This document shows, piece after piece, positions 205-18,804 of a DNA stretch of 28,067 nt (positions are counted from its first letter, which is position 1; each line of letters begins with the position of its first letter). The stretch lies in contig NZ_JAAHGX010000014.1 of assembly GCF_010672305.1 (NCBI RefSeq), forward strand, positions 90,698 through 118,764, in the 5' to 3' direction. The notes below the pieces were generated by a model. That model was not told where the DNA came from and did not search any database. It saw only the letters and a program-made list of their open reading frames with translations. The position numbers and the translations under genes were made by a program. Origin of the DNA: Okeania sp. SIO2G5. GTDB lineage: Bacteria > Cyanobacteriota > Cyanobacteriia > Cyanobacteriales > Microcoleaceae.

Positions 205-484
205 GAAATCAGAAGAACAACAGCATCCCCAATATCATAAAGATAGACTAATAGTTAACACCCTATTAGCAGAAAAAGATACTGCCTATAACTTAGCAGA
301 ATTAGCAAGACTAAAAATTCGTTATCGAGGTTTTCCTGGGGCAAAAGATATTCAGGAAGACTTAGAGAAAGTATTAGTAAAGTGGGAACTAACTGAAGAA
401 AAGCTCTATGAAAAAACTCGTGAAATTCATCGCAAAGGTCAGGTTTATAAAAAACACAATAACGACCAAGAAGATTGGTTTTAG
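203..484 (+). CDS. small conserved hypothetical protein (93 aa); resembles a small protein family conserved in cyanobacteria (possibly DUF3288-type)
   Basis: Intact ORF of 93 aa. Protein-like composition with motif NLAELARLKIRYRGFPGAKDIQEDL, which I associate from memory with a cyanobacteria-wide small protein family. Not verified by search. Confidence 0.45.
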   Translation: MKSEEQQHPQYHKDRLIVNTLLAEKDTAYNLAELARLKIRYRGFPGAKDIQEDLEKVLVKWELTEEKLYEKTREIHRKGQVYKKHNNDQEDWF

Positions 485-813
485 AAATTTTTTATAATTA
501 TTTAATAGAGTGGTTAAATAAGGTAATAAGCAGTAGGTCTGGTTAGCAATGGAAGTAGAGGTTCGTGAGATTATTGCTGTTTATATGGACTCACGGGATT
601 GAGAAGTCACTAGGCATTTGTAGCAGTCCTTACCTGCTGTAGGTCGTCAATTTGCCTTTCGCTCCGCGACATTAAACGTGTAAATAATGTGTAGTCCGTT
701 ACTGTGAATCGCTACATTTATATAGTTTTTGCAGATAATATCAAATCCGGTTAATTGCACATAAAAAAATTCTCCAATCGTCATAACTACGCTTATCTTT
801 GTAATTCTCTTTC

Positions 814-850
<37 letters not shown>

Positions 851-944
851 AGTTAACCATTCTATAACTGTTTAACCGGACTTGATATAATTTGGCATTC
901 CACTATACCTAAAGTATAATTAATATGAAATACGAAAAATTATG

Positions 945-1330
945 CTACAAATAAAGCATCAGATAAAGCTTCTAAAATCAAGTCCCATCCGGTCACAGAT
1001 ATAATAGTTTTTGGGGTTAATTCTAGTAAGATTTTAGATAATCGCTTTCTGAAAATATCGAGATTTTCAAACAGTTCCCACTTGAATTTTTTTTGAATTT
1101 CTTTCCACAATCTTTCAATGGGATTGACTTGTGGAGTGTAAGGAGGTTGAAATAAGGAGTGTAAGGAGGTTGAAATAAAAGGATGACATTATTGGGAATT
1201 AGGCGATCCATCTATAATGCCGTAATCTGCAAGTCTTACCTGTGAATAGTCTTGGATAGATTCGATTGCTTTTGTTACTAAATCACCAGTAGGTTCGAGA
1301 GAAGGTTTTGCTCCAATTGTGTTGAATGAA
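945..1330 (-). pseudogene. IS630/Tc1-mariner family transposase remnant (C-terminal DDE region), degraded
   Basis: Minus-strand translation gives LFQPPYTPQVNPIERLWKEIQKKFKWELFENLDIFRKRLSKILLELTPKTIISVTGW, the classic IS630 C-terminal signature (PPYSP-LNPIE-LW). The frame is broken by a perfect 23-bp tandem duplication (ggagtgtaaggaggttgaaataa x2, about 1133..1180). The N-terminal part is missing or unrecognisable. Confidence 0.55.
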
Positions 1331-1910
1331 GTAGTTAGATGTCATATAAATTTCCATGTCATATCCTCTCTAATGATGATTATTTGCAACCTGATTTTTA
1401 GCTAATTCATCCTCAATAAACTCAGAAGTTTTACTTCCAACTTTTGGTTGTTTATCTACGTTCTGAAATTATAGTAGTTTAACTTAAAAATGAGACGTTT
1501 TTTCATCTGAAACTCCCTCATAGCAAGAAAGCTTTGTCTCAATCTAAAGTTAAATGACTATAGTGTTGATATGATTCAGGTATTTCATAATGCCAAAAAT
1601 CACAATAGCATATTTTGGACATCCAAATTGAAAATTTAGACCGCTTAGGTATAAATCAATACAGTTCAGTTAAGGATTTTTTTTGGCAGTTCTGTAATCT
1701 CAAGAGCTACTCTAATAGTTCCATACCTTATGAGTTTTATCCCTATTCCCTACTCCCTATTTCCTACTGCCTAAAATTTAATGATTATCTGTTTCACTTT
1801 TTGCGATAAATATGAAACTTTTGGCTTTCATGGATACTAACAAAACTAAATCCAGCTTGTTCCATAATTTCTTCTTTTTTCCATTGCTTAATGTAACTCA
1901 ACTTAAGTTT

Positions 1911-2555
1911 TTATTGAGCTAATATTTCCCCATCTTTCTTAAAAAAATAAGTTTTATCAATGGATTCAATTTCATAATTTTCCCCAATTTTTTCTATCTC
2001 ATGAGAATAAACAATTCCTGTGGGAAGACTTTGTTGATAACTTTTATGTTCTCCTTGAAAACTCAATAGGAATAACCCATCTTGATGCAGATGTTTAGCA
2101 ACATTAATTAATCCCTTAATATCCTCATCAATATCCTTAGTATGATTTCTTAAGTCAGTCCGATCACCTCGTTGACTTATTACCCAAACTCCTCTACTAG
2201 AAACAGCGATATCAAAAGTTTCTTGGAGGTTCATATCATAGATATCTGCCTCTAGCAACTTTCCCCATCCTCCTAATCTCTTTCTGGCAATTTCGAGCAT
2301 TGATAAGGTAATATCTACTCCTGTAAATTCAGCTTCGGGAGCAAGTGGCAATAATTTTTCAGCAAATAATCCTGTTCCTACACCTAATTCAAGTATTTTT
2401 TTATGACCATCTTTCATCAAAGAATAGACTGCATTAGCCATTCCTTGATAATCATAATAGCCTTGGGTCATCAAAAGATCATAATAATCAGTAAAACTAT
2501 CGTAATAATCGGTGATATTAATATATTGACTCATAGTTAATTTTGCAGGAGTCAA
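1911..2555 (-). CDS. class I SAM-dependent methyltransferase (214 aa)
   Basis: Intact ORF. Motif I ILELGVGTGLFAEKL (GxGxG SAM-binding loop) with downstream acidic residue (VDIT), the Rossmann MTase pattern. Confidence 0.8.
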   Translation of the reverse strand: MTPAKLTMSQYINITDYYDSFTDYYDLLMTQGYYDYQGMANAVYSLMKDGHKKILELGVGTGLFAEKLLPLAPEAEFTGVDITLSMLEIARKRLGGWGKLLEADIYDMNLQETFDIAVSSRGVWVISQRGDRTDLRNHTKDIDEDIKGLINVAKHLHQDGLFLLSFQGEHKSYQQSLPTGIVYSHEIEKIGENYEIESIDKTYFFKKDGEILAQ

Positions 2556-2699
2556 GTGCAGTCCCTAATAAATAATTTGAATTTTAGTAACTATAACCAT
2601 GATGATTTGATTGAAAAATCCGTATCAATAAATCAGCTATTTATTTTCTCAATTTGATGCAACTTAACAGGGAATTTGTATCAGACTTAATTTGGATAC

Positions 2700-3110
2700 A
2701 ATTATTTGATTATCTGTTTCACTTTTTGCGATAAACATAAAACTTTTGGCTTTCATAGACACTAACAAAACTAAACCCATCTTGTTCCATAATTTCTTCT
2801 TTTTTCAATTGCTTAATGTAGTTCAACTTAAGTTTTTGTTGAGCTAATATTTCCCCATCTTTCTTAAAAAAATAACTTTTCTCAATGGATTCAATTTCAT
2901 CATTTTCCCCAATCTTTTCTATCTCCTGAGATTAACGAAGTCAGAAGTCAGAAGTCAGAAGTTAACCCACCCCTCGCCCCTCCCCCTCCCAGGAGGGGAA
3001 GTAGGGGATGCGTGAGCAACTCTCCAAAAATATTGCGCCTTAAAAGGCGGGGTTTTAGACCAATATTATTTTGATAAACAATTCCTGTGTGGAAATTTTG
3101 TTGATAACTT
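2700..3110 (-). pseudogene. duplicated fragment of the 3' end and downstream flank of the 1911..2555 methyltransferase gene, split by a MITE insertion
   Basis: 2700..2930 matches 1782..1999 at about 90% nucleotide identity (ttatctgtttcactttttgcgataaa...atctcNtgag). Homology resumes at 3073 (aaacaattcctgtg...ttgttgataac, matching 2003..2045). The 142 bp in between are a dispersed-repeat element. Confidence 0.6.
2931..3072 (+). mobile_element. MITE-like element, family A (heptamer head GAAGTCA x3-4 + G/C-rich palindrome cccctccccctccc/aggaggggaag + ccttaaaaggcggggttttagacc tail)
   Basis: It interrupts the duplicated MTase fragment exactly, with TA present at both junctions (t-TA-acgaag ... ttttga-TA-aacaa). 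A second copy lies in inverse orientation at 14711..14858 and a partial related copy at 27925..28010. Confidence 0.55.
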
Positions 3111-3156
3111 TATAGGTTAGCTATGGGTAATTAGGGTTTGCTGAATAAAGTATGAG

Positions 3157-3385
3157 TAGTAGGGGTAGGAGTCAGGAGTCAGGAGTCAGGAGAAATGGGG
3201 AATTTAGAGGAGGTAGGAGTAAGAATTGTCCCTCAATTTTTTTGTCCGAAGGTTTGCCTTTTATGCTAACTTTTTGAGGGTTTTAGACTAAAACAAGCGC
3301 ATTTTTTGGGAATCGAAGAAAGCTCAAACCTTTACCTGTCAATGGTCTTAAAATTAATTGGCAAACCCTAATTATAAATATCTGG
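3157..3385 (+). repeat. dispersed repeat family B (about 230 bp), copy 1
   Basis: Shares ggagtcagg...gtcaggagaaatgggga-at-tagagg-ggtag...aattgtccct-gattttt...aacctttacctgtcaatgg with 24612..24840. Confidence 0.6.
3166..3194. repeat. heptanucleotide tandem repeat (GGAGTCA)x3 (reverse complement of CCTGACT)
   Basis: Direct reading: ggagtcaggagtcaggagtcagg. Confidence 0.85.
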
Positions 3386-3404
3386 AAATCAAAGAATTAA
3401 TTTA

Positions 3405-3610
3405 ATATTTGGAAAAGGTAGGCAATAGGTAATTTCAGTTATCAGTTATTAGTAACTCTTCAATAAGGAGGCAAGAAAATACGGAATTCTCTTTTCTCTT
3501 GGTCAATTGGATATGGGGAGGTCTCCTCGTCACCCCACCCTACGGGAAGCTCCGAAGCTATACTGCTTTTTATCCCCTTAAAAGGCTATGCTTTATCAAC
3601 ATATTTACTT
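3405..3610 (+). repeat. composite small dispersed repeats (tcagttatcagttat-family followed by ttggatatggggagg...cccaccctacgggaagctccg family and a ccttaaaagg...ctttatc tail)
   Basis: 3421..3500 matches 11697..11768 (+) and the reverse complement of 14560..14702. 3508..3565 matches 22413..22545. Confidence 0.55.
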
Positions 3611-3793
3611 AACATAAAACTTGACAAAATAGACAAGTTATATTCAAGCCTTTAAAAGTTTTTTTTCAGAGAAAAAGTGTATTCAAAGGTATATTTGTTT
3701 TGATAACTTAAGTAGCTTTTCCTATCTATATGATTCTTTCTCCCTTCTCCCCTGCTCTCCACAAGGTTTTCAGGAGTTCCTTATAAGGGATAG

Positions 3794-3835
3794 CTTAAAA
3801 GGGGAGGCTTTAGACCAGGATTTTTCGGTCAAAAG
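3794..3835 (+). repeat. gcttaaaaggggaggctttagaccaggatttttcggtcaaaag module, 3' flank of the giant gene
   Basis: Near-identical to 11769..11812 (ccttaaaagaggaggctttagaccaagatttttcggtaataaag) at the 5' flank of the same gene, in the same orientation. Related ccttaaaagg-N-gg-g-tttagacc modules occur at 3038..3061, 14735..14760 (rc) and 22546..22575. Confidence 0.6.
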
Positions 3836-3909
3836 AATATCGTTGATTAGTAAATGCACAAATAATTTTATCCATCTACTTAGCACAATAATTTGATTGA
3901 AAAAAATCA

Positions 3910-6900
3910 TCAATTTCCTGCAAATTTTTGATAATCTTCTAGTAACCAATGAGGCAGTTTAGTTATATCTTCGATTCGTAATTGTTCAGAACGACAATAT
4001 AACATTGCTGCTAATAAATAATTTATAGTTTTTGGTGCTTCTATTCCTTTGGCAAGTTGAGCAGCTAACTGTCGTAAAAATTCTTGTTCGCTTTCTATTA
4101 AAGATTCATTTTGAATTTTGCTATTGAGTAATGCTTGATAACCTTTACCCATTTCACCCAAGTAAAAAGTTTCTAGTTTTTGAGGTTCTAAATTTATCCA
4201 AAAATCAGCCATTTGTTTTCTGATTTGACGCAATTCTTGAACCACAGATTCATCAGATGGGTCAATATAGTAAAGATTCACACTGCCCAATAATTGATTG
4301 ATAAATTTTTGCTGTGGAATGTCTAAATTATCTGTTTGATTTGCTGTTAAAACTACATTTTTTTCTGGTCTAACTTCAGCAGTTGTGACTGGAGAATTTT
4401 CTGGTAGATGAGGGGATTTAGATTTAAAAGCTTTTTCCAACTTCTGGGCAACTTCTCGACTTTCAAATATCTGTTTATAATCATCTATCAACCACTGAGG
4501 TAAACGATTTTTAGCATCTCTGACTAACATTTTGCTTGGAGGAAAATATAACATTGCCCCTAAAAATGTATTGATAGCTTTTGGATTAGTTAAACCCATA
4601 CTTGTCTCAGCTAATTCTTTGAGAAATTTCTGTTCATCTTCGGTTTGAGGTTCGTTTTGAATTCCACTTTTTAATAAAGCTTGATATGCTTGTCTAATTT
4701 TGCCTTGATAAGTATTTTCTAATTCTTTGGGAGCTACAGCTAACCAAAAATCAGCTATTTGTTTACGAAGTTGACGTAATTCTTCTATTAAAGATTGGTC
4801 AGTAGGATCGATTTCGTAGAGATTCACACAACCAATCAAACGATTGATAAATTCAGAAGTTAAAGAATTTTTATCTGTAGATTCTATAGTTTTTGGCGCG
4901 TGAATATTTTGCCATTCTTGGAATAATTCTTGAAATAATTTACCTATCTGTGTAGAGTAACTAAGACTGTCTAAAAATGAAGGGTTTTGCTCAATTTTTT
5001 CCAGAATTTCTTGCCGCTTTTGTTGACGTAACTGAGGATTAGTTGCTAGTTTCACTACTAAATTAATATAACTCTCTTCCCCATCAGCAATAAGATCGTC
5101 CATCTTTATCTCTCTGAGCAATGCTGATGCTTGTCGAAACCTTAAAGCATTTCCTTCAACAACTACTGGTGGAACTCCGACCATGAGTGGATCGACCAGA
5201 GAGGTTGCACCACCGTAAGGGAAAGAGTCTAAATAAATATCCGCTAATTTCAAACATTCTTTGATATCTGCTTGACTTGGTAATGCTTTAATTACGACCA
5301 AGCGCTTACTGTCGATACCATGACGTTTCAAAACAGACCGCATCTGTTTGATAAAAGGGGCAAATCGATAAGAATTAGTCCAGTTAGGATTAAAAGGATA
5401 CAAGACTAAAATAGAATTGGGCACTTTTGCTAGGATTTTGGCCCAAGTCTCCCGCATCTCCGGTATAATTTTGTAGAAATTAGCTCCAGAAATAAATATG
5501 GTGGTTTGGTCGGTTGCCCCCCAACTAGAGCGAATTGGTTTTACTCCTGAGGGGGGTTCGGCGATCGCATATCGGAAACAGAGTCCGGAATCTTCTAGGT
5601 TGGCCAGTTTTTCTGTATAATGTTCTTGGGTTGTCTCTGTTGGTGCAGTAATTTTACCGGAGATATAGTAGTCTATGGAGTGCATCCCGGTGGTAGTGGG
5701 AGAATTGATGGATGTAATTTGTATTCTGGCCAGTTTGTGTATTGCCAGCAAGGTAGAATTTTTGATAGTAGCAGTAATATTAGAGCCAATAAATAGAATA
5801 TCAAGGTTGTCGTTGCGAATAATTTGTGCTTGACTTTTCAATTCTTCTGGTAGTTGTAGAAATTTATCGGCGTGACTTTGGCAATATTTTTCTAAGGGAT
5901 GTCCGTTAGATTTTATTGCATAGAGAAATATCTCAAATTTACTCCGGTCTAAATGTTCAAATACTGGGAGTAAGGAATATGTTTCTGTTTGGGGAGAATA
6001 ATGATCTTTGAGAATTCCCAAGCGAATTTTTGGGCGGTTAAATGGGCGGTCGTTCATCTTATAATCTAACTCTAACCCACGATTTTTTAGAGCAAATTCT
6101 ATAATTTCTGCACGCTTGATGTAGAGATTTTTTAAATTGGGCGTAGTAGTAAAATATAGAGGAATCCAATTAGCATTTTCCACAAAAAACCAGGCGATAA
6201 CTTGCCATAATTCTGAGTCTGGATTAGTGGATATATTGTTATGCACATAATTCAACCATCCTACTAGAAAATTATGATAATTATCTGTTTCTCCTATTTC
6301 TTGAAAAAGTTGGGGAGAGGCAAACATAAATTTTAAATAGTCTGTAGCAAACCAGCTAGGTATGGGAGCTTTTTCGTATTTAATTCCTAGTCGATCTGCT
6401 CTTTGATAAAGCATCCCTGCCAATAAATACTGAATGGCTAAAGGTTGGTTAAATCCTTTGGCAAAATTAGCTTTTATTTTGTCTACAAATCTTTGTTCTA
6501 TTTCAGTTAAAGTTTCGTCTTTTATACCACTTGCTAATAATGCTTTGTGTGCTTGACCAAATGCTCCCAAGTAAACATTTTTGAGTTCTTCCGAAGTTTG
6601 AATATTCAGCCAGCATTCTGCAATTTGCTTTCTAATTTCTTGCAATCTAACTAATGCTGATTCATCCAACTGGTTTTGCTGATAAAGCTGAATATTCTGA
6701 TTTATTTCTGTCAGAGATGGTAATAAATTAGTTTTAACAGTAGGAACAACTTTTTGTTGTTCTATAGACTGAGGTTTTGGAGAATTGACTGACTGATTTG
6801 GTGTCTTAATTAAATCTGTTTCCCCACTGACCAAAACAGAGATAAGTAAATTAACTACAGAAGGAGATTGACTACATTTAAGACCTTCACGAATTTGAGC

Positions 6901-9900
6901 GATCGCTCCATTAGTATTTCCTCCTTTCAACATAGAAGCAGCCATTTTTATTGCTTCAATTGCATAATGTTCCCTAGCTTTATCAGATAATTTTTCTGCC
7001 ATTTTTGTTGGTAAATAAGTTTGAGTAATTTCTATAGCTTTCCGAGCATTTTCTATATTACCGCCAGACTGCATTAAGCGGGAAGTTTCCGAGGAGGAAT
7101 GTAAACGGAAACAAGCCAAAATTTCCGGTTCAAACCAAATAGGATAAAAAGCAGTTATTCGCTTCCAAATTTCCCAATCAGCCGCCGAATCTGCCTGAGA
7201 ACAAAAACCTCCTAAATTTTCATAAACCTTACGTTTTACTACCATCCCCACAACTTGAATTCGTTGTTCAATAGTAATTTTTTCTAAGAAATTTTCTATA
7301 ATACCTGGAGTTTTTCTTTCCAACACAGACAAATACTTTTTCTGGTCATATTCATCTATATAATAGTGGCGACAAAATGCTGCTCCTACTGTTGTATTTT
7401 GTTCAATTCCACGACGTAATTTTTCATAAAAACCAGGCAAGACAAAATCATCATCATGGAGTAGATGAATCCAATATCCTTTTGCTCTTTGTAGACAAAT
7501 ATTAAAAATCGGAGCTTGACCAATATCTTGTGGAAAATGTCGATAAAAATTAACTCTTTCTCCCCCTACCTTTCGGACAATTGCTTCTATTTCAGCTTGA
7601 ATTTTATGGTCTGGACAATCATTTACGACTTCTATCTGCATTTCTTCTAGGGCAGGAGCTTGTTGCAATACACTTTTGAGAGTTTGCTCTAAATATTTCG
7701 CCTTTTTATAAGTAGGAATCATCACAGACCAAAACGGTCGATGGTTATTATCTGACAATGGATTAATTTCTGGATATTCAATACCCATTTGATTATTTTT
7801 GAGAGTAGCTATTTGAGGAAATTTTTCTATACCTACTTCTAGTTGTTGTTCTCGTCTTACCGTTGCCCAAATCCAAGGTTTAGCAGATTTTAAAGAAACT
7901 AAATTAAACCCCGCTGCCATTAATAAATCTTTTAATTTTTCTTCAGTATAAGCATTGCCAGAAAAATAATATTGTTGATCTTTTGCCCCTTCCTCATCAA
8001 AATTTCCTAAACTTTCAGCGCTGTGGTCATGTACTTTAATTCTCAAATATCCTCCCGGTTTCAAAACCCGAAATATTTCTCGGAAATAACTTTTGACAAT
8101 AGAAATAGAACGGATGTGCTGAAAAACTATCGTCGAAAAAACAAAGTCGTAATTTTCATCAGCTAACTGTTGCAAATCATCGCCATTATTAATATATAGC
8201 TCTCCATTTTGTTTCCCATCAGCTAAATATTGTCGGGCAAACTGAATCATATTTTCCGAAATATCTACACCATCTACCCGTGCAAATTTTTCTCGCAAAT
8301 ACTTAATAAGACGACCAACACCACAACCGATTTCTAATACTTTCCACTCTGGTTTAACAGGGATACCTTCCAGAATTTGTGGCACCCAAATTTCCATTAA
8401 CTCTTTCCTAACTTGCTTTTTTTGTCCTGGAGAAAGCGTCTCCATTCCACTGTAAGCTAAGACTCGCTCAAAAATAGCTTCATCTAAAGAATTAACATTC
8501 CTAAAATAGCGTTGTATTTCTAACTGCCCGTGATTTATTTGAAATTGAATTTTGCCTAAATTTTTCCTATCTTCCATACCAGATAATTCCTTTGATTTAA
8601 GCTGTATCTCTGACTCTCCATGATTTATTGGAGATGAAATTTCTCCTGACTTTTTCCTATCTTCCACACTAGAAAATTCCTTTGATTTAACCTGCATCTC
8701 TAAATCTCTATGATTTATTGGAAATGGAATTTCTCCTGACTTTTTCCTATCTTCCATAGCAGATAATCTCTCTACTTTAATCCGATTAAAAGTCTGGATA
8801 AATACATCAGTCATAATCTTAGCCATTCGAGACCAAGAAAACTTTTGAGCTTGTGCTAAACCAGCAGTTATTAATTGTTGCCGAACTTCTGATTTTTGCA
8901 CTTCACCCAAAGCATTTACCAATCCATTAACATCATTATCATTAATATATAAAGCTGCTCTTCCTGCCACTTCTGGAATTGAAGCATTTTTACAAGTAAT
9001 AACTGGACAACCACAAGCCATTGCTTCTAAAATAGGCAGTCCAAAACCTTCATATTTTGATGGATAAACTAAAGCCATCGCTCCAGAGTAAGCCGATTTT
9101 AATTCTTGGTCACTCAGTTGTAATAAATGAATTTTACTATCTGAAATATATTTGCTTAATTCTGGCTCTACTTTTCTATTTCCCCCTATACAAACAATCT
9201 CAAATTCTGCGGATTTTTTGAATTTAGCAAAAGCTTGAAAGAATAACATAGTATTTTTATAACCTAGCCAACCTATTCTCTCACCCACTATCAGAAAGTA
9301 TGGGCGATGAATGTTATATTTCAACTGAAAATTAGTAACTTCTTGAGGGGTCGCTCTAGAAAATTTAGGTTCAATTCCGCAGGGAGCTACTCTGATAGAA
9401 TTTGCGGATATTTGAGGAAAATATTTTACTAAATCACGAGCTGTATTTTCTGAAATTGAAATATAAGAAATTGCCTGTTTAATACTACGATGTTTTTCTT
9501 GCCATGAAGGGTTATCAAGATTTTTAGCTAAAACTTCTGGAATCATATCATAAGCCATAAATATAGATGGCGTTAAGATAGGTGTTGTGTAATAAGTAGA
9601 AATGAAAATATCAGCATTTTCTTCATCACATATTTGCTGCAAAATTTGACGGTCTGCATCTATTCTGCCGTAATTATATCCAGGGATAACACGATATTTT
9701 ATGCCGGGAATTTTTGGTGCAGTTTTTGCTCTGTCAAGCACTAAAATATTTTTAGCAAAACTATCTTTTGACCATACTTCCAACAAAGACTTCCAGACAC
9801 GGGCAATACCTGTATTATTTATTTGGAAAAATACACCATCAATAAGAACCTTGAAATCTAATAGCTGCCAATTTTTCGATTTTCTTTCGGCAATATTTTC

Positions 9901-11583
9901 AGAGTCTAACTCAGTTAACTGCTGCTGATTTTTTAGTTTCTTTTCTGTCACTTTTTCATAGTCTACCTCAGTTAAAGATTCTTTCCTTTTCTCAGGTTTA
10001 TATCTACCTATCCTAAATATGCTGTGAAACTCGGAATTTGATAAACTTTTCTCTGTTAATAAGTGCAGAGATTCTCCATCCGAACATAAATTAAGTTTAA
10101 ACTTTTGAGCAATTACAGATAATGCTTTTTTGTTAAATATAGAAATGTGTTGACCTTCTTCCAGAGCATAATACCACCAATCATTAGGACGAGGATTATC
10201 AGGTGGCAATAGCTTTGTACTAAATAAAATATTTCTAGTTTGTTGCAGTATCTTCTCAATTTCTGCCAGAGGATTTATGAAATGTTCAAATACTTCAAAA
10301 GCTGTGACTATTTCATATTTTTGTTCCCTATTTATTTCTCCTTCCCATCCTTGAGAAAAAATATTTTGGCAATATTTATCATATCCATAAAAATCTAATC
10401 CTAAGTCACGCATCATCCGGACAAATAAACCATACCCACACCCATAATCTAGGAATTTATCATTGGCATTAAAGAAGTTGAGAATTAAATTTTCTGTAAT
10501 CAAAGAAAAATTTTGATTTCTAGAAACCAAACCCACATCACTACTAGCAATTGCCTCTGTATAAGCTTCCCCTAACCAGTAAGGATTTTCCGTTTGTACA
10601 AAACCACAATTAGAACATTGAAAATAGTCAACATTATATTTATTTAAAACCTTAGCATTATCAAATTTGTGAGATATTGAACCACAAACTTTGCAATGAA
10701 CATTTTGAATTTGTAAACCACCACTAAACATTGTTTTTTCTGTAAAATTGTCTGCTGGAATATTACGAATAATAGAGGGAGGATGAGTCAGAGGAAAAAT
10801 CATTTCCTCCACAGACATATTGGCAAACTTATTAATACTTGAAGTGTGAGTAGCACCTTGACCAAAACCAATATTAGAAACTAAATTAACCTTGGGTAAA
10901 ATAGTTAAACCATGATAATTCCAACAGGCAAATGTCCAAGCATAAGCCCAAGAATTAAACCCTTGATAATTCTTCTGAAAAATCTCCGACCAATATTGAA
11001 CTGCCCTACTATTTTGTAGAATATTTTCTAACCACTTACTACCTCTAAGCTTCGACCATAATTGCATTTGATTATCATAATTTTTCCATGCTCTTCGCCA
11101 AGTTGCCCAACCCCAACAATGGGGATAGCGAGAGAAATAATAACTAGACTCTATTGGATTATTACCAAACTGAAAATTATCTCCAGATATAGCCATAATC
11201 CTCTCATCATTTCGATATCTTTCTAATAACTCTTCACAAAACCTAAAAAAAGTTAAATGAGGTACACAGTCATCCTCCAAAATAATTGCTGATTCTACCA
11301 AACTAAAAACCCAATTTAATCCATTATAAATACGCTCTCTACAACCTAAATTCTTCTCAGAATAATTAGTCAAAACTTCACAATTCCAATCAACCTGATC
11401 GATTATCTTTCTTGCTGCCATACACCTCTCAACTTCTCCATATCTATCGAGGCGAGGAGCATCAGCTATTACAAATAATTGAAGAGGCTTTACTTGACGA
11501 ATTGCCTCAAATACTTTTGCCGTTGTATCTGGTCGATTAAATATAATTATAACTACAGGAGTTGTTAATTGAAATTGAGTCAT
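3910..11583 (-). CDS. giant multidomain glycosyltransferase/methyltransferase (2557 aa): GT-A + Zn-ribbon SAM-MTase + GT4 + SAM-MTase + GT2 + GT41 (OGT-like) + repeated helical modules
   Basis: Single uninterrupted 7674-bp ORF; residue numbers are approximate. N-terminal GT-A-like domain with EDD motif (ILEDDCVP, res 1-300). CxxC...CxxC zinc ribbon, then MTase motif I LDYGCGYGLF (res 300-520). GT-B/GT4 domain with EX7E signature EGFGLPILEAMACGCPVI (res 570-960). 3 x 30-aa tandem repeat (res ~929-1018). Second MTase, motif I VLEIGCGVGRL (res ~1030-1230). GT2 domain with SVMIPTYKKAKYLEQTLKSVLQQ and HDDD (res ~1280-1530). C-terminal domain (res ~1790-2210) aligns by eye with GT41 catalytic-domain landmarks (RPKIRLGIL...FEIFLYA; VPNSILVLYPF; ADIYLDSFPYGGATSLVDPLMVGVPPVVVEG). 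Three paralogous ~125-aa modules at res ~1628-1760, ~2230-2350 and ~2420-2557. Confidence 0.9.
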   Translation of the reverse strand: MTQFQLTTPVVIIIFNRPDTTAKVFEAIRQVKPLQLFVIADAPRLDRYGEVERCMAARKIIDQVDWNCEVLTNYSEKNLGCRERIYNGLNWVFSLVESAIILEDDCVPHLTFFRFCEELLERYRNDERIMAISGDNFQFGNNPIESSYYFSRYPHCWGWATWRRAWKNYDNQMQLWSKLRGSKWLENILQNSRAVQYWSEIFQKNYQGFNSWAYAWTFACWNYHGLTILPKVNLVSNIGFGQGATHTSSINKFANMSVEEMIFPLTHPPSIIRNIPADNFTEKTMFSGGLQIQNVHCKVCGSISHKFDNAKVLNKYNVDYFQCSNCGFVQTENPYWLGEAYTEAIASSDVGLVSRNQNFSLITENLILNFFNANDKFLDYGCGYGLFVRMMRDLGLDFYGYDKYCQNIFSQGWEGEINREQKYEIVTAFEVFEHFINPLAEIEKILQQTRNILFSTKLLPPDNPRPNDWWYYALEEGQHISIFNKKALSVIAQKFKLNLCSDGESLHLLTEKSLSNSEFHSIFRIGRYKPEKRKESLTEVDYEKVTEKKLKNQQQLTELDSENIAERKSKNWQLLDFKVLIDGVFFQINNTGIARVWKSLLEVWSKDSFAKNILVLDRAKTAPKIPGIKYRVIPGYNYGRIDADRQILQQICDEENADIFISTYYTTPILTPSIFMAYDMIPEVLAKNLDNPSWQEKHRSIKQAISYISISENTARDLVKYFPQISANSIRVAPCGIEPKFSRATPQEVTNFQLKYNIHRPYFLIVGERIGWLGYKNTMLFFQAFAKFKKSAEFEIVCIGGNRKVEPELSKYISDSKIHLLQLSDQELKSAYSGAMALVYPSKYEGFGLPILEAMACGCPVITCKNASIPEVAGRAALYINDNDVNGLVNALGEVQKSEVRQQLITAGLAQAQKFSWSRMAKIMTDVFIQTFNRIKVERLSAMEDRKKSGEIPFPINHRDLEMQVKSKEFSSVEDRKKSGEISSPINHGESEIQLKSKELSGMEDRKNLGKIQFQINHGQLEIQRYFRNVNSLDEAIFERVLAYSGMETLSPGQKKQVRKELMEIWVPQILEGIPVKPEWKVLEIGCGVGRLIKYLREKFARVDGVDISENMIQFARQYLADGKQNGELYINNGDDLQQLADENYDFVFSTIVFQHIRSISIVKSYFREIFRVLKPGGYLRIKVHDHSAESLGNFDEEGAKDQQYYFSGNAYTEEKLKDLLMAAGFNLVSLKSAKPWIWATVRREQQLEVGIEKFPQIATLKNNQMGIEYPEINPLSDNNHRPFWSVMIPTYKKAKYLEQTLKSVLQQAPALEEMQIEVVNDCPDHKIQAEIEAIVRKVGGERVNFYRHFPQDIGQAPIFNICLQRAKGYWIHLLHDDDFVLPGFYEKLRRGIEQNTTVGAAFCRHYYIDEYDQKKYLSVLERKTPGIIENFLEKITIEQRIQVVGMVVKRKVYENLGGFCSQADSAADWEIWKRITAFYPIWFEPEILACFRLHSSSETSRLMQSGGNIENARKAIEITQTYLPTKMAEKLSDKAREHYAIEAIKMAASMLKGGNTNGAIAQIREGLKCSQSPSVVNLLISVLVSGETDLIKTPNQSVNSPKPQSIEQQKVVPTVKTNLLPSLTEINQNIQLYQQNQLDESALVRLQEIRKQIAECWLNIQTSEELKNVYLGAFGQAHKALLASGIKDETLTEIEQRFVDKIKANFAKGFNQPLAIQYLLAGMLYQRADRLGIKYEKAPIPSWFATDYLKFMFASPQLFQEIGETDNYHNFLVGWLNYVHNNISTNPDSELWQVIAWFFVENANWIPLYFTTTPNLKNLYIKRAEIIEFALKNRGLELDYKMNDRPFNRPKIRLGILKDHYSPQTETYSLLPVFEHLDRSKFEIFLYAIKSNGHPLEKYCQSHADKFLQLPEELKSQAQIIRNDNLDILFIGSNITATIKNSTLLAIHKLARIQITSINSPTTTGMHSIDYYISGKITAPTETTQEHYTEKLANLEDSGLCFRYAIAEPPSGVKPIRSSWGATDQTTIFISGANFYKIIPEMRETWAKILAKVPNSILVLYPFNPNWTNSYRFAPFIKQMRSVLKRHGIDSKRLVVIKALPSQADIKECLKLADIYLDSFPYGGATSLVDPLMVGVPPVVVEGNALRFRQASALLREIKMDDLIADGEESYINLVVKLATNPQLRQQKRQEILEKIEQNPSFLDSLSYSTQIGKLFQELFQEWQNIHAPKTIESTDKNSLTSEFINRLIGCVNLYEIDPTDQSLIEELRQLRKQIADFWLAVAPKELENTYQGKIRQAYQALLKSGIQNEPQTEDEQKFLKELAETSMGLTNPKAINTFLGAMLYFPPSKMLVRDAKNRLPQWLIDDYKQIFESREVAQKLEKAFKSKSPHLPENSPVTTAEVRPEKNVVLTANQTDNLDIPQQKFINQLLGSVNLYYIDPSDESVVQELRQIRKQMADFWINLEPQKLETFYLGEMGKGYQALLNSKIQNESLIESEQEFLRQLAAQLAKGIEAPKTINYLLAAMLYCRSEQLRIEDITKLPHWLLEDYQKFAGN
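4955..6215 (-). other. GT41 (O-GlcNAc-transferase / SPINDLY-like) catalytic-type domain within the giant ORF
   Basis: Motifs RPKIRLGILKDHYSPQTETYSLLPVFEHLDRSKFEIFLYA, ETWAKILAKVPNSILVLYPF and ADIYLDSFPYGGATSLVDPLMVGVPPVVVEGNALRFRQASALL correspond to the conserved OGT C-terminal blocks. Confidence 0.7.
8531..8800 (-). repeat. in-frame 90-bp x3 tandem repeat inside the giant ORF (30-aa units MEDRKKSGEI-FPINH--LE-Q-KSKE-S)
   Basis: tgatttattgga-atg-aatttctcctgactttttcctatcttcca recurs with an exact 90-bp period (unit starts 8531, 8621, 8711). The period is a multiple of 3 and preserves the frame. Confidence 0.85.
8704..9874 (-). other. GT4 (GT-B fold, group 1 glycosyltransferase) domain within the giant ORF
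   Basis: EX7E-type motif SKYEGFGLPILEAMACGCPVI and the upstream Rossmann-like half VLIDGVFFQINNTGIARV. Confidence 0.75.
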
Positions 11584-11696: not shown

Positions 11697-11812
11697 AGTC
11701 ATTTCAGTTATCAGTTATCAGTACCTCTGTAATAAAGAGGCTTTAAATACGAAATTATCTTTTTTTTTCCTTAAAAGAGGAGGCTTTAGACCAAGATTTT
11801 TCGGTAATAAAG
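11697..11812 (+). repeat. tcagttatcagttat-family + ccttaaaagaggaggctttagaccaagatttttcgg module, 5' flank of the giant gene
   Basis: Same two modules, in the same order and orientation, as at 3421..3500 and 3794..3835 on the 3' flank. Confidence 0.6.
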
Positions 11813-12204
11813 TTGATAGCTGATATCTCACTACTGAATCCTGAGAAACTTTTAATTATGGAAAATATTTCCATTATTTTTTCTCCTTTCAAAGTAATCA
11901 AAACTGATAGCTGACTGCTGAGTGCTAAATGCTTATAAGCTAATAAAGCTGATAGCTGATACCTGAGTGCTGAATGCTTATAAACTTTTAATTATGGAAA
12001 ATATTTCCATTATTTTCCCCTCCTTTCAAAGTAATAAAAACTGATAGCTGAATGCTGAGTGCTAAATGCTTATCAGGTAAGAAAGCTGATAGCTGATACC
12101 TGAGTACTGAATGCTGAGAAACTTTTAATTCTGGGAAATATCTCAATTACTTTTTCCTCCTCTAAAGGTAATAAAGCTGAATCCTCACCGCTGAATGCTT
12201 AACC
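11813..12204. repeat. intergenic tandem repeat, about 136-bp unit x 2.9
   Basis: Units at 11813..11947, 11948..12084, 12085..12204. Each carries two gctgatagctga-N-ctgagtgct-aatgcttat half-sites and a near-palindrome atggaaaatatttccat. Confidence 0.85.
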
Positions 12205-12325: not shown

Positions 12326-12856
12326 TTATCCATTATCCATTAATGACGTCGCTTTATATAAAATATCTTGATGAGACCGTTCCAGTAAAGTCTCATTGAT
12401 AGAATTAGATAATACTGCAACAGGTTCATATAATGGTCTTAAAAAAGAGTCAATTGCTTTTCTATCTCCATAACGTACTTCTATCAACATAAACTTTGGT
12501 TGGTATTTATCAAAATCAATACCTTGCAACACATCTAATTCAAAACCTTCAACATCCAACGAAAACAAATCTATATTTTCAACTCCATACTTATCAAGAA
12601 TTGCAGTTAGTGTCCTTACTCGTACATTAATTTCATAACTATGATTAATATTTTGAACTTGACAACCCGCTTTTAAATGAACCTTTTTTTCCTCCTCTGA
12701 CTTCATAGCTCCATCAACAAAAGACATAAGATTACAATAGTACATTTTTATATAATCCTGACCATAATTAAAAGGAACCAAAGCATAATTTTCAACCGCT
12801 GACTTAGACCGATTAATTCTACATTTTTCTGCTAACTCTGGTATTGCCTCTATCAA
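12326..12856 (-). CDS. FkbM-family SAM methyltransferase, C-terminal portion; reading frame continues upstream to an in-frame TGA at 12890..12892
   Basis: Motif IDLFSLDVEGFELDVLQG is the FkbM (Methyltransf_21) signature. The frame is open from 12889 and continuous with the upstream ORF across a single TGA (FIEAGANDGISQSNT*YFEKYKNWQGILIEAIPELAEK). Confidence 0.7.
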   Translation of the reverse strand: MIEAIPELAEKCRINRSKSAVENYALVPFNYGQDYIKMYYCNLMSFVDGAMKSEEEKKVHLKAGCQVQNINHSYEINVRVRTLTAILDKYGVENIDLFSLDVEGFELDVLQGIDFDKYQPKFMLIEVRYGDRKAIDSFLRPLYEPVAVLSNSINETLLERSHQDILYKATSLMDNG

Positions 12857-12889
12857 AATACCTTGCCAGTTTTTGTACTTCTCAAAATA

Positions 12890-14038
12890 TCAAGTATTAC
12901 TTTGACTTATCCCATCATTCGCCCCAGCTTCAATAAAAAATCCATTTTCCCAAGTTAAGTAAGAAGCAAGTTTAAGATCGAGCTGATTCAAAGCATAAGA
13001 TTTTCTCATTAAATCAGGTTTTATTTCTAATGCCTTTTGCTGATAAATATTAGCCTCAAATAATCTACCCTGTTTCTGTAAAATATTACCAATACTCCAA
13101 TATATACCTGCCGACTTTGGTTCAAGTGCAATAACTTTTTGATAGTAAGCGTTCGCCTGTTCTAGCTGACCTTTTTGGGAATAAATTTTGCCTAGTTTTG
13201 CATAAACTATTGCCAAGTTTGGTTGTGATTTTATTGCTTTGTTATAAGAACGAATAGACTTTTCAATTTGACCTTTAGAATAATAAAAATCCCCTAATCC
13301 CTGATAAGCTTCAGCAGCATAAGGTTGATTTTTAATAGCTTCGTAATAAGCCAAAATCTGATTATCTTGACTGTCTAGATTTTTATTTTTTCTTTTAGCT
13401 CTTGCTTCACCTTGACCCAAAGAAATACCCAAGCAAGACTGCTTTTGACTAGGTAATTTTAAATCCGATAAAAAATCATCACTTTGAAAAAAAATAGAAG
13501 TACAGCTTTTATATCTTTGACTAGGAACTAAACCATAAAAATCAATACGTTTAAATCCTTGATGATGAAGCAAAATTACTCCCCTATCATTTTCCTCTCT
13601 ATCCGAATTATCAAATACTATCCAGCCATTTTTAGATAATTTTTCACCACATATTTCAGCACATTTAACTCGCTCAATTCCATCAATAATAATCACATCA
13701 AAATCACCATTATCATAATTCTGAATTTCCTCAACATATCTTTGCCTATCTTCCCTCAAAACTAGCTTCACATTTTGAGGAATATAAGTTGAAACATTGA
13801 CAAAATAATCAGGATTATGTTCTACAGAAACCACCTGCTTAACTCGGTCAGCGTACCAAAAAGTTGACTGTCCGCTCCCATATTCAAATACTCGAAAATC
13901 GCTCTTTAACTTATCCTCAATAAATTCAATAGCAGGATAAGAATACCAAGGAAGAGGATGATAATTATAATCTATAGATTTTCCTTCTTTTAATGAATTG
14001 AGCCATCCTGAAGTTTCTAGATAGTTCAAATTAGTCAT
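12890..14038 (-). CDS. TylF/CmcI-like class I methyltransferase domain + TPR repeats + start of the FkbM methyltransferase domain (382 aa ORF ending at in-frame TGA)
   Basis: N-terminal FEYGSGQSTFWYA...DVIIIDGIERV...NGWIVFDNSD resembles the macrocin-O-MTase/CmcI-type fold. Central TPR-like repeats (AEAYQGLGDFYYSKGQIEKSIRSYNKAIKSQP; AIVYAKLGKIYSQKGQLEQANAYYQKVIALEP). Ends FFIEAGANDGISQSNT, which is the FkbM N-terminal GAN-G motif. Confidence 0.7.
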   Translation of the reverse strand: MTNLNYLETSGWLNSLKEGKSIDYNYHPLPWYSYPAIEFIEDKLKSDFRVFEYGSGQSTFWYADRVKQVVSVEHNPDYFVNVSTYIPQNVKLVLREDRQRYVEEIQNYDNGDFDVIIIDGIERVKCAEICGEKLSKNGWIVFDNSDREENDRGVILLHHQGFKRIDFYGLVPSQRYKSCTSIFFQSDDFLSDLKLPSQKQSCLGISLGQGEARAKRKNKNLDSQDNQILAYYEAIKNQPYAAEAYQGLGDFYYSKGQIEKSIRSYNKAIKSQPNLAIVYAKLGKIYSQKGQLEQANAYYQKVIALEPKSAGIYWSIGNILQKQGRLFEANIYQQKALEIKPDLMRKSYALNQLDLKLASYLTWENGFFIEAGANDGISQSNT

Positions 14039-14710: not shown

Positions 14711-14858
14711 GAACAACATTATCAAAATAATTGGGTCGCGCAACCCCACCTTTTAAGGCGAAATATTCTTGAAACCTTGCTCAAATCCCCTACTTCCCCT
14801 CCACCGGAGGGGGAGGGGCGAGGGGTGGGTTAACTTCTGACTTCTGACTTCTGACTTC
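14711..14858 (-). mobile_element. MITE-like element family A, second copy (inverse orientation)
   Basis: Its reverse complement reads gaagtcagaagtcagaagtcagaagttaacccacccctcgcccctccccctcc-ggtggaggggaagtagggga...cgccttaaaaggtggggtt...attattttgataa, co-linear with 2935..3085. Confidence 0.6.
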
Positions 14859-15073: not shown

Positions 15074-16915
15074 GTGAATAATAAAAGGTGGAGAAATGCT
15101 GGCCTATATGCCCTATTAGCAATAGTAGTCATCGCCTTAGCAACAGCATTCTTCGATCAACAACCCCAAACCAGCGAAACCTGGAAATATAGTCAATTTA
15201 TTCAGCAGGTAGAAACCAAAAACGTAGACAGAGTAAGCATCAGCGCCGACCGTACAGCAGCACGAGTCAAAGTCGCCGACGGTAGTATAGTCCGCGTTAA
15301 CCTACCCAACGACCCAGACCTAATAAACATCCTCACCAAAAACAACGTAGACATTTCCGTACTCCCCCAAAGCGAAGAAGGTTTCTGGGTTAGAGCATTA
15401 AGTAGTTTATTCTTCCCCGTCCTATTATTAGTGGGACTATTTTTCCTACTACGTCGTGCCCAAAGTGGACCTGGTAGCCAAGCTATGAACTTTGGTAAAT
15501 CCAAAGCAAGAGTCCAAATGGAACCCCAAACCCAAGTCACATTCGGCGATGTAGCAGGTATTGAACAAGCCAAACTAGAACTAACAGAAGTAGTAGACTT
15601 CCTCAAAAATGCTGATCGCTTCACAGCAGTAGGCGCAAAAATTCCCAAAGGAGTATTGTTAGTAGGTCCTCCGGGAACAGGTAAAACCCTATTAGCAAAA
15701 GCAGTAGCTGGGGAAGCAGGAGTACCATTCTTCTCCATCTCCGGTTCAGAATTTGTAGAAATGTTTGTGGGTGTAGGTGCTTCCCGCGTCCGCGACCTAT
15801 TTGAACAAGCAAAATCTAACGCTCCCTGTATCGTATTTATAGATGAAATTGATGCGGTGGGTCGTCAACGGGGTGCTGGTTTAGGTGGTGGTAATGATGA
15901 AAGAGAACAAACCCTCAACCAGCTACTTACCGAAATGGACGGTTTTGAAGGCAATACAGGTATCATTATTATTGCAGCTACTAACCGCCCAGATGTTCTA
16001 GATGCTGCCCTACTCCGACCAGGTCGTTTTGACCGTCAAGTAGTAGTAGACCGCCCTGACTATGCAGGTCGTCTAGAAATTCTCAATGTTCATGCTCGTG
16101 GTAAGAGTCTATCTAAAGATGTAGACCTAGAAAAAATTGCTCGTCGAACTCCTGGATTTACTGGAGCAGACTTGTCTAACCTATTAAATGAAGGAGCTAT
16201 TTTGGCAGCTCGTCGCAACTTAACTGAAATCTCTATGGACGAAGTTAATGATGCTATTGACCGGGTATTAGCTGGTCCAGAAAAGAAAGACCGAGTAATG
16301 AGCGAGAAGCGTAAGGAGTTAGTAGCGTATCACGAAGCTGGTCATGCTTTAGTCGGAGCGTTGATGCCTGATTATGACCCAGTACAGAAAATTAGTATTA
16401 TTCCTCGCGGTCGTGCTGGTGGTTTGACTTGGTTTACTCCTAGCGAAGACCGGATGGACTCTGGTTTGTATTCTCGTGCTTATCTACAAAATCAGATGGC
16501 TGTAGCTTTGGGTGGTCGTCTTGCTGAGGAGATTATTTTTGGTGATGAAGAGGTGACTACTGGTGCTTCTAACGATTTACAGCAGGTTGCTAATGTGGCA
16601 AGGCAAATGGTGACTCGCTTTGGCATGAGCGATCGCCTTGGTCCAGTTGCTCTTGGTCGTCAGAACGGTAATATGTTCTTAGGTAGGGATATTATGGCGG
16701 AGCGTGATTTTTCTGAGGAAACTGCTGCTGCTATTGATGATGAGGTGCGCAATTTGGTAGAGCAAGCTTATCGTCGGGCGAAGGAAGTATTGGTAACTAA
16801 CCGTCATATTTTGGATAAGTTAGCCGAGATGTTGGTTGACAAGGAGACTGTAGACTCTGATGAGTTACAGGAGTTGTTGGCAACTAATGATGTGAAGATG
16901 GCGGCTTTGATATAG
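15074..16915 (+). CDS. ftsH: ATP-dependent zinc metalloprotease FtsH (613 aa)
   Basis: N-terminal TM helix. Walker A GPPGTGKT, Walker [10 protein letters not shown], second-region-of-homology motif, zinc-binding HEAGHA. Cyanobacteria carry several ftsH paralogues, so which one is not determinable from this window. Confidence 0.95.
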
Positions 16916-17967: not shown

Positions 17968-18430
17968 AGCAGGCTTAAATGGAGTTGCTTGCCTATACGC
18001 ATGACTTTTTATTCAATTAATTTTCCTTACTCAAAGGCGATGAACTATTCAGGATTTTTTTCCCAGAAGCAATACCACCAAGATTTTCATTCTCTGAAGC
18101 TCAAGAACTACTTACTTATTTCTTCTCTAATCAAATCTTTCCATCCATGGCAATTGAGTGAAAAATTACCAAGATTTTCATTCTCTGAAGCTCCGAAAAA
18201 AAATCGCGACTCAAAGGAATTTCCGGTTGCATCCTCACAAAAATTCTGATATCATCAGATTTAAATGGGGCTGTTCGTCTATGCGCATGACTTTTTATTC
18301 AACAAAATTCCCTTGCTTAGAGGCGATGAACTATTTAGGAATTTTTTCCCTGAAGCAATACCACCAAGATTTTCATTCTCTGAAGCTACCTGAAGAATAC
18401 TGATTTTTCCCTCATCAAATCTTTCCATCT
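17968..18430. repeat. tandem duplication of a ~285-bp composite non-coding repeat (modules A-B-C, then A-B)
   Basis: Module A (~135 bp: ttaaatgg-g-tg...cgcatgactttttattcaa...ggcgatgaactatt-agga...gaagcaataccaccaagattttcattctctgaagct) at 17968..18101 and 18253..18386. Module B (atcaaatctttccatc) at 18131..18146 and 18414..18430. Module C (gattgagtgaaaaattaccaagattttcattctctgaagctcc-gaaaaaaaatcgcgac) at 18154..18210, and again at 18622..18685 after an intervening inserted element. Confidence 0.7.
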
Positions 18431-18774: not shown

Positions 18775-18803
18775 CTCTGACTTTTGACTTTTGACTTGTC
18801 CTA
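18775..18803. repeat. heptanucleotide repeat (TTTGACT)x3
   Basis: Direct reading: ctgacttttgacttttgacttgtcc. It overlaps the TTG start proposed by the ORF track. Confidence 0.8.
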
Positions 18804-18804
18804 T

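Follow-up and report, generated by a model that had tools for sequence, protein, structure and literature searches.

The 28,067-nucleotide stretch of Okeania sp. SIO2G5 considered here (contig NZ_JAAHGX010000014.1, positions 90,698 to 118,764 of the forward strand; in the following called the window) carries a single uninterrupted 7.7-kb open reading frame (ORF), whose product is referred to as the megaenzyme, adjoined upstream by a partner gene and by a divergent ftsH gene (Table 1). The uninterrupted frame had been recognized in a preliminary description of the sequence that left its strand unstated; all 2557 codons have been confirmed and assigned to the minus strand. Equally, the glycosyltransferase (GT) and S-adenosylmethionine (SAM)-dependent methyltransferase (MTase) domains called at that time have been upheld in all six catalytic assignments by Pfam profiles, motifs and structure searches, five of the domains clearly exceeding the curated Pfam thresholds. 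As judged from its sequence, the megaenzyme is a soluble multi-domain glycosyltransferase/methyltransferase, with six catalytic modules whose motifs are intact. Hydropathy analysis (Kyte-Doolittle, 19-residue windows) predicts no transmembrane segment in the 2557 aa, the maximum over the whole megaenzyme being 1.47.

Table 1. Features of the megaenzyme locus; positions refer to the window, residues to the megaenzyme.
Feature	Position	Strand	Evidence or remarks
Megaenzyme ORF	3910..11583	minus	2557 aa plus stop, ATG start, zero internal stops
Module A, GnT-I/GT13-like GT-A, residues 1-290	10714..11583	minus	EDD 103-105
Module B, Cys4 zinc-ribbon-like motif plus class-I SAM MTase, residues 291-520	10024..10713	minus	Pfam Methyltransf_23, motifs
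B-C linker, residues 521-574	9862..10023	minus	two copies of ~17-18-aa charged repeat (LTExDxExxxExK..QQQ)
Module C, GT4 (GT-B, retaining family), residues 575-935	8779..9861	minus	Pfam, E845-x7-E853
C-D linker	8513..8767	minus	90-bp x 2.8 tandem repeat = 3 x 30 aa (EDRKKxGEIxxPINHxxxEIQxKSKExS)
Module D, second class-I SAM MTase, residues 1040-1250	7834..8466	minus	Pfam, LEIGCGVG 1083-1090
Module E, GT2 (GT-A, inverting family), residues 1270-1560	6904..7776	minus	Pfam, DDD 1377-1379
R1, first helical repeat copy, residues 1605-1765	6289..6771	minus	masked self-BLAST; directly N-terminal to GT41
Module F, GT41 (OGT/SPINDLY-type GT-B), residues 1790-2215	4939..6216	minus	K2038 in GANFYK; T2127/S2128
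R2, second helical repeat copy, residues 2225-2385	4429..4911	minus	49% identity to R3, E 1e-40; dN/dS 0.31
R3, third helical repeat copy at C-terminus, residues 2404-2557	3913..4374	minus	dN/dS 0.12
Upstream partner gene, MTase-TPR-FkbM	12326..14038	minus	weak Methyltransf_24-like domain E 1e-4 (under cut-off), TPRs, FkbM
Downstream small class-I SAM MTase, 214 aa, possible accessory	1911..2555	minus	Pfam Methyltransf_25 E 2e-11
ftsH, divergent positional landmark, not functional part	15074..16915	plus	translation

The megaenzyme gene is genuine, and every domain is under purifying selection. At the GC content of the window (~33%) stop codons are expected at ~7.5% of random codons, and the arithmetic from GC gives a probability of ~1e-86 for a 2557-codon ORF to arise by chance. 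Full-length orthologues span 70-94% identity at 100% coverage, among them those of Okeania hirsuta (94%), Okeania sp. SIO3B5 (85%), Dapis (82%) and Trichodesmium (79%), and Okeania sp. SIO4D6 contributes a fragment of 401 aa that matches the C-terminus with 100% identity. That the giant frame is an artefact or a decaying gene, be it several genes joined by mis-assembly, which had been named beforehand as a finding that would overturn the description, or a functionless pseudogene fusion, might be suggested by the premature stop in the adjacent upstream gene, which is also split in O. hirsuta, by the equivalent locus of another genome (L009) being called as five overlapping ORFs and by the abundance of small repeats in the region. 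We consider such an origin hardly credible and reject it, because independent assemblies (two from Okeania, others from Dapis and Trichodesmium) agree in their end-to-end architecture, because the orthologue on the finished T. erythraeum IMS101 chromosome is a single 2490-aa ORF adjoining an intact partner gene and ftsH, and because the ratio of nonsynonymous to synonymous substitution (dN/dS; Nei-Gojobori, versus Trichodesmium) is 0.12-0.34 across all modules including the R repeats described below. The intact catalytic motifs equally speak against decay.

The GT41 domain (module F), initially placed at the C-terminus of the protein, is preceded by one and followed by two copies of a repeat, designated R, and lies therefore internal to a 950-aa C-terminal R-GT41-R-R cassette. 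The repeat measures ~135-160 aa, with 34-49% identity among the copies at residues 1605-1763, 2225-2382 and 2404-2557 (R1 versus R2 and R3: 34-41% in self-BLAST); the copies were found by BLAST with masked segments, whole-protein self-BLAST having given the identity match alone. No Pfam family matches R, for which helices alone are predicted (R1 with a predicted local distance difference test score, pLDDT, of 80-92 in the AlphaFold2 model), and a database search with R2-R3 retrieved cyanobacterial proteins exclusively. R1 occupies the place that in OGT and SPINDLY (SPY) is taken by tetratricopeptide repeats (TPRs), and Pfam TPR families found no match anywhere in the 2557 aa, TPRs being present in the neighbouring gene only.

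The earlier assignment of module F as OGT-like and the proposed structural check on it both hold. Glyco_transf_41 (PF13844) matches residues 2017-2203 (E 5e-30, 104.6 bits versus a cut-off of 25; E 3e-32 with the module F segment alone) with a second stretch in the N-lobe. In a phmmer search against the PDB, Arabidopsis SPINDLY aligns in one unbroken stretch (E 2e-31, residues ~1853-2197), followed by the OGT of T. terrenum (TtOGT; 1.4e-23), human and fly OGT (~1e-22, in two stretches), XcOGT (2e-14) and HMW1C-type N-glycosyltransferases (NGTs; ~1e-4). The two-stretch alignment with OGT fits a module F that lacks the metazoan intervening domain, a lack shared with SPY and bacterial OGTs. The top 50 Foldseek matches of the AlphaFold2 model of residues 1600-2557 (mean pLDDT 70) are all GT41 (OGT, SPY, XcOGT, TtOGT and AaNGT; probability 1.0). 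Furthermore, K2038, invariant in the family alignment A2, aligns with the lysine of the SPY motif 'NNLAKI' and with the residue altered in the K-to-M construct of DmOGT that was crystallised, and is the equivalent of the residue mutated in the TtOGT K341M and SeOgt K445A constructs; its counterpart in human OGT is, we assume, the donor-phosphate lysine K842. On the basis of sequence and model, the GT41 fold and family membership of module F are considered solid. Module F shares sequence, fold and donor-phosphate lysine with OGT and SPINDLY enzymes, including the cyanobacterial Ogt Synpcc7942_0051 and Nostoc punctiforme OgtA. In contrast, those enzymes carry a TPR array where the megaenzyme has R, with two more R copies after its catalytic domain, and module F is fused to three further GTs and two MTases. 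We know of no characterised GT41 protein that is fused to other GTs and MTases.

The five modules preceding the cassette represent three GTs and two MTases. Module A shows a GT-A fold nearest to GnT-I with an EDD motif, has no Pfam match at E<=1 and does not group with GNT-I (PF03071) by sequence; the sole PF03071 match in the megaenzyme falls on the GT2 module (E 2.7e-5, under the cut-off). Module A is thus GT13-like in fold only: it shares 12-18% identity with GnT-I and POMGnT1 (CAZy GT13) and, unlike these, is bacterial, cytoplasmic and without a stem or transmembrane region. A HMMER search of 1.84 billion 50%-identity cluster representatives retrieved 11,982 relatives at E<=1e-3, with 3,563 of them reaching E<=1e-30; stand-alone proteins of ~300-320 aa are frequent among the relatives, and none of the stand-alone homologues sampled was named. 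The bacterial GT-A family of module A is thus very large, yet neither Pfam nor NCBIfam has a curated model for it. The retaining-type module C is placed in GT4 by Glyco_trans_1_4 (PF13692; E 1e-20, 75 bits) and Glycos_transf_1 (PF00534; E 7e-19, 68.5 bits versus a cut-off of 26.4), both at residues 761-905, together with its EX7E motif, and module E in GT2 by Glycos_transf_2 (PF00535) at residues 1286-1436 (E 6e-19, 69 bits versus a cut-off of 23.3), together with its acidic D1377-D-D1379 motif. None of the present results shows processivity, a property with which the GT-A, GT4 and GT2 domains had previously been credited.

Modules B and D are both recognized as class-I SAM MTases by a Pfam match and a glycine-rich SAM motif I. 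Module D matches Methyltransf_11 (E 1.6e-24), Methyltransf_12 (E 2e-22) and Methyltransf_25 (E 1e-21) at residues 1083-1181, and module B Methyltransf_23 at residues 367-498 (E 1e-40 in the whole protein, E 1.6e-22 for the segment alone). The four cysteines of module B (C297, C300, C323 and C326) and its glycine-rich SAM motif LDYGCGYG (378-385) are invariant over 13 diverse homologues (alignment A3). The preliminary description had connected zinc-ribbon MTases of this type with sugar C/O-methylation. This link was not recovered: of the further domains that accompany Methyltransf_23 in TcaB9-type sugar C-methyltransferases, the Methyltransf_13 zinc domain (PF08421) reaches E 0.044 only and Methyltransf_14 has no Pfam match on module B, and PDB searches with the single sequence and with a family profile gave no solved relative beyond generic class-I MTases at E 0.02. 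Kinship to sugar C/O-methyltransferases is kept as a plausible lead, and not as an assignment.

Both inter-module linkers are variable-number tandem repeats among close relatives. The 17-18-aa unit of the B-C linker ('LTELDYENIAEKK..QQQ') is present in ~2 copies here, ~4 in Dapis and ~9 in Okeania P0008. The 3 x 30-aa repeat between modules C and D, noted from the outset, was found again as a tandem repeat at the DNA level (Tandem Repeats Finder score 363, 83% matches), and its 30-aa unit occurs three times here and in Dapis, once in O. hirsuta and Trichodesmium (60 gap columns) and ~6 times in P0008. This variation in copy number may reflect a tunable spacer or mere replication slippage.

Mapping of the modules of the window onto 111 long megaenzyme homologues resolves the family into recurring units, namely A, B-C (always adjacent, with C directly after B), D, E and R-F; R stands directly before GT41 in nearly every GT41-bearing homologue, with up to four more R copies after it. 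With one genome per species scanned, the C-terminal cassette has at least 480 relatives, the best 80 of which carry mostly the names of Oscillatoriales-type genera (Okeania, Trichodesmium, Dapis, Microcoleus, Tychonema, Kamptonema, Lyngbya and Arthrospira), the remainder of these 80 being unclassified or differently binned metagenome-assembled genomes (MAGs). The family is specific to filamentous (Oscillatoriales-type) cyanobacteria. A comparison across Nostocales had been suggested; the best relatives are found instead in Okeania (Oscillatoriales/Microcoleaceae), Dapis and Trichodesmium. Equally, with at least 480 species-level relatives and 111 long homologues, and with characterised GT plus MTase fusions such as WsaE, Klebsiella O7 ORF6 and O12 WbbB, the degree of pathway fusion cannot be called unusual, as had been done at first sight.

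The position of the locus is fixed and its content is not. In 64 species-level loci whose upstream sequence extends over 8 kb or more, mapped by tblastn, ftsH is located upstream on the opposite strand in 58, and the C-terminal cassette, R-F-R-R(-R), is constant. The modules upstream of the cassette differ widely, with the forms CCC (18 loci), BC (10), EC (9), ABCDE, DDD(D)(E), EE and others, whereby the mapping detects only module types found in the megaenzyme of the window. Module turnover is extreme even inside the genus Okeania: where the present strain has ABCDE, Okeania sp. SIO1I7, SIO2B3 and SIO2C9 and a Cyanobacteriota MAG (L016-L018, L023) carry arrays of three to four tandem module-D copies before R-GT41-R-R, with ftsH detected upstream in two of the four. 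At L009 (GCA_030545275.1), the ftsH-linked locus at 233-8588 consists of ORFs of 397, 816, 266, 1120 and 195 aa, which may represent a frameshifted pseudogene, an error-ridden assembly copy or a truly unfused version. A short ORF with a TnpB/Cas12f-like TNB domain adjoins ftsH in O. hirsuta (L001, 4575-4910), Trichodesmium (L002, 5751-5891) and Limnospira (L003, 5954-6310); this ORF resembles the remains of a transposon and is in synteny as well.

The partner gene upstream of the megaenzyme had been described as encoding two MTase domains and TPRs. A weak Methyltransf_24-like domain, the TPRs and FkbM are indeed recognized, but an in-frame TGA at 12890-12892 (minus strand) cuts the gene within the SAM-binding region of FkbM. 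Trichodesmium, in which the gene is intact (569 aa), and O. hirsuta, in which it is split at another site, carry TTA (Leu) at this codon. The TGA reflects a base-call error or a recent nonsense mutation; unless the base was miscalled, the fourth MTase (FkbM) is probably inactive in this strain. A TPR-containing MTase partner gene recurs upstream in related loci, in one of which the precomputed Pfam families include a weak match of the partner gene to the FkbM-related V_cholerae_RfbT. In V. cholerae, RfbT is the methyltransferase that acts on the end of the O-antigen. The orthologue of the small MTase on the other side of the megaenzyme consists of two ORFs in O. hirsuta and is missing in Trichodesmium. 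A 246-nt direct repeat (1772-2017 and 2697-2942, 91% identity) places a second copy of the 3' end of this gene upstream of it, which suggests local rearrangement.

The pair of megaenzyme and partner gene is flanked by inverted copies of a ~120-nt element (2937-3054 and 14742-14858) that share a perfect 53-nt inverted match plus an 83% match over 42 nt, each copy beginning with tandem GAAGTCA heptamers, resembling short tandemly repeated repetitive sequences, followed by a G/C-rich hairpin. A mobile cassette bracketed by the 53-nt inverted repeat was considered and rejected, since the ftsH-linked position is conserved across genera and an exact 28-mer of the element is absent from the nine related loci searched; two copies of a small dispersed repeat are the more likely explanation. 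The 742-bp spacer between partner gene and megaenzyme consists mostly of three tandem 137-nt units (11747-12156), each containing two ~38-nt sub-repeats; in Trichodesmium the spacer is only ~140 bp. Equally rejected was a defence or 'conflict' system, raised by a weak GT4-conflict Pfam match, as PADLOC gives a generic methyltransferase (mad2) and no system.

The remainder of the window holds features of a different kind. A tachylectin-like ORF (19599-20138) is made up of three 150-nt (50-aa) tandem repeats, 93-99% identical, which extend to the stop codon (19695-20144). A stand-alone homologue of DndE, a DNA phosphorothioation protein, lies at 23531-23923 (Pfam E 1e-42), with no dndA-D partner ORF of at least 100 aa beside it in the window and with a ComFB-domain gene (24098-24583) as its next downstream neighbour. 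The ORFs at 20352-22172 (minus strand, 606 aa) and 18784-19428 (214 aa) have no Pfam or NCBIfam match, and the former no PADLOC match either. Between 17 and 23.3 kb the window is rich in repeats, among them inverted repeats (18430-18590 versus 22259-23288), and has a low coding density.

How might such a protein work? Of the GT families represented, GT4 is of the retaining type, the others (GT13-like, GT2 and GT41) being inverting, and class-I, FkbM and CmcI-type MTases often O-methylate sugars. By family precedent, each GT module would make one linkage of a short hetero-oligosaccharide, three of them inverting and one (GT4) retaining, the MTase modules would O-methylate sugars of that glycan and the neighbouring TPR-FkbM MTase would add more methylation where its gene is intact. 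That the protein is a modular glycan-assembly enzyme of this kind is, taken alone, very probable. The further proposal is that a soluble cytoplasmic enzyme assembles a strain-specific methylated oligosaccharide with the GT41 cassette priming a protein acceptor; we favour it tentatively, as a quite possible reading that stops short of being probable. The R-GT41-R-R cassette would place the first sugar on Ser/Thr residues of a conserved acceptor protein, the helical R domain would substitute for the TPR acceptor-binding arm of OGT/SPINDLY and the swappable N-terminal modules would extend this primer into the strain-specific methylated glycan. The foremost candidate for the acceptor is a pilin or another secreted protein of the cell surface that would receive its glycan prior to export. 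The priming step is assigned to the GT41 cassette because the cassette is invariant in the family, because characterised GT41 enzymes, including all those that match module F (OGT, SPINDLY and HMW1C/NGT), glycosylate proteins, and because a precedent exists in Synechococcus elongatus, where the GT41 enzyme Ogt is required for glycosylation of the PilA pilin via its conserved lysine K445 and is proposed to be cytoplasmic as is the megaenzyme (PMC9306852). The preliminary description had already suggested initiation by the OGT-like domain with elongation and methylation by the fused domains, and the constant cassette with swapped modules across the 64 loci lends this indirect support, the acceptor being a candidate only.

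The swapping logic resembles, by analogy, that of serotype-variable O-antigen loci or of flagellin and pilin glycosylation loci. Carried further, the ftsH-side locus might be the protein-glycosylation counterpart of an O-antigen serotype locus, in which the cassette primes, in the cytoplasm, one protein conserved among filamentous cyanobacteria (candidates are a pilin, an S-layer/oscillin-type or other secreted protein), R is a new fold for acceptor binding or docking in place of TPRs and the modules in cis write a methylated O-glycan specific to the species or strain; the result would be a template-free single-chain glycan assembly line that evolves by module swapping in a manner like polyketide synthases (PKS) and nonribosomal peptide synthetases (NRPS). 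This extension is speculative, and we regard it as rather unlikely in its entirety. Outside the realm of bacteria, soluble multi-domain GTs that, like the megaenzyme, may serve as a comparison are the Skp1 enzymes of Dictyostelium and Toxoplasma (with the bifunctional PgtA), which extend a glycan stepwise on a cytoplasmic protein. Unlike the megaenzyme, these are eukaryotic, belong to other GT families, have no MTases and carry at most two catalytic domains per chain.

Several observations weigh against protein priming by the cassette. The N-lobe of GT41 is modelled partly at low confidence (pLDDT <50 at residues ~1948-2007). The active site is not that of a canonical OGT, as Gln1865 is located at the column of the first His in the OGT motif 'GNHPTSH', a column that varies between Q, A and M in the family (alignment A2), and the nucleotide-contacting stretch of module F is equally unlike that of OGT and SPY. 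The aligned loop histidine is presumably H498 in human OGT and H218 in XcOGT; a near-invariant His1861 lies four residues upstream of Gln1865. Module F is accordingly called a GT41 domain here, and not an O-GlcNAc transferase. ftsH aside, no neighbour recurs in the eight annotated neighbourhoods. Most of all, the characterised soluble multi-module GT plus MTase enzymes (WsaE, WbdA/WbdD, WbbB and Klebsiella O7 ORF6) act on lipid-linked glycans destined for export by ABC transporters, and the transporter genes of such systems need not be adjacent in cyanobacteria.

These enzymes define the most serious competing explanation, according to which the megaenzyme is the polymerase/terminator of a lipid-linked surface polysaccharide (O-antigen, sheath or extracellular polysaccharide) with ABC-transporter-dependent export. 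In such a system the GTs would polymerise a repeat unit on an undecaprenyl-PP-sugar at the inner membrane face and an MTase would cap the non-reducing end, stop growth and license export, with the linkers as spacers or rulers and the GT41-like domain plus R as a scaffold or a non-protein glycosyltransferase. WsaE of Geobacillus combines two rhamnosyltransferase domains with a capping 2-O-MTase (PMC2943079), Klebsiella O7 ORF6 an MTase-kinase, a coiled coil and two GT2 modules and O12 WbbB is a characterised GT plus MTase fusion, with orthologues of the ORF6 terminator mentioned in cyanobacteria (PMC11231755). Together with WbdA/WbdD of E. coli O8/O9 these proteins show, like the megaenzyme, several GTs and a SAM MTase on a soluble chain with spacers between the modules and a module content that is reshuffled among serotypes or species. 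This is the sole experimentally established role of soluble multi-GT plus MTase polypeptides. The RfbT match in one related locus and the nucleotide-sugar modification genes adjoining some relatives point in the same direction, as do the linkers, whose variable copy number would suit spacers, and the exchange of modules at one fixed position, which O-antigen loci typically show as well. However, the known systems have no GT41, possess a long coiled-coil ruler and are located beside wzm/wzt, the megaenzyme differing, as far as seen, on all three counts and having twice their number of catalytic modules. In the eight annotated neighbourhoods no wzm/wzt (ABC-2 permease/ATPase) pair, wzx/wzy or polyprenyl-phosphate GT adjoins the gene, and no Wzt bearing a carbohydrate-binding module, WecA/WbaP-type primer GT or ligase occurs within them. 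Neither hallmark of an ABC-dependent polymerase/terminator is thus seen: wzm/wzt linkage is missing among the adjacent genes of these neighbourhoods, and neither a long coiled coil nor a membrane-anchoring amphipathic C-terminus could be recognised from the sequence and the model of residues 1600-2557 (of the N-terminal residues 1-1600, module A only was modelled). As, moreover, the invariant part of the family is a GT41, the characterised members of which glycosylate proteins, we hold this explanation to be a real possibility, though on balance an unlikely one. Improbable to a clearly greater extent is a cytoplasmic or small-molecule product, that is, a free polymethylated oligo- or polysaccharide, comparable to the methylmannose and methylglucose polysaccharides of mycobacteria, or a glycosylated lipid or natural product in place of a surface glycoconjugate. 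The solubility of the protein, the lack of nearby export genes and the presence of several MTases per locus would fit such a product, and in mycobacteria the polymethylated polysaccharides are known to arise through GTs and MTases that act in turn on a free glycan in the cytoplasm. On the other hand, hypervariable modules at a fixed locus in close relatives are more typical of surface-exposed, selection-driven glycans, no PKS/NRPS natural-product genes are adjacent and, to our knowledge, no small-molecule acceptor has been described for GT41.

Multi-module GT/MTase enzymes as such are already known, and so are the domain labels of these cyanobacterial proteins in databases; literature searches found no paper on this protein family. 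New, as far as these searches went, are the fusion of GT41 to elongating GTs and MTases, the replacement of TPRs by R, the fixed ftsH-linked locus with module swapping and the uncurated GT13-like family, with module A bringing out a large bacterial GT-A family that has no curated model. Should the megaenzyme turn out to be an O-antigen-type polymerase instead, the module repertoire of such systems would be extended all the same. If priming of a protein acceptor by the GT41 cassette holds true, on the other hand, this would be the first OGT/SPINDLY-type (GT41) enzyme joined on one chain to enzymes of glycan elongation and methylation, with a new helical domain instead of the TPR acceptor arm. 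Trichodesmium, Okeania, Microcoleus, Arthrospira and Planktothrix, bloom-forming and globally important filamentous cyanobacteria, would then share a fixed-position locus that diversifies a methylated glycan by module swapping on a single chain. Methylated surface sugars bear on grazing, phage attachment, gliding and aggregation, and the locus would provide a tractable path to the targets of bacterial OGT homologues and to the origin of methylated sugars on cyanobacterial surface proteins and polymers.

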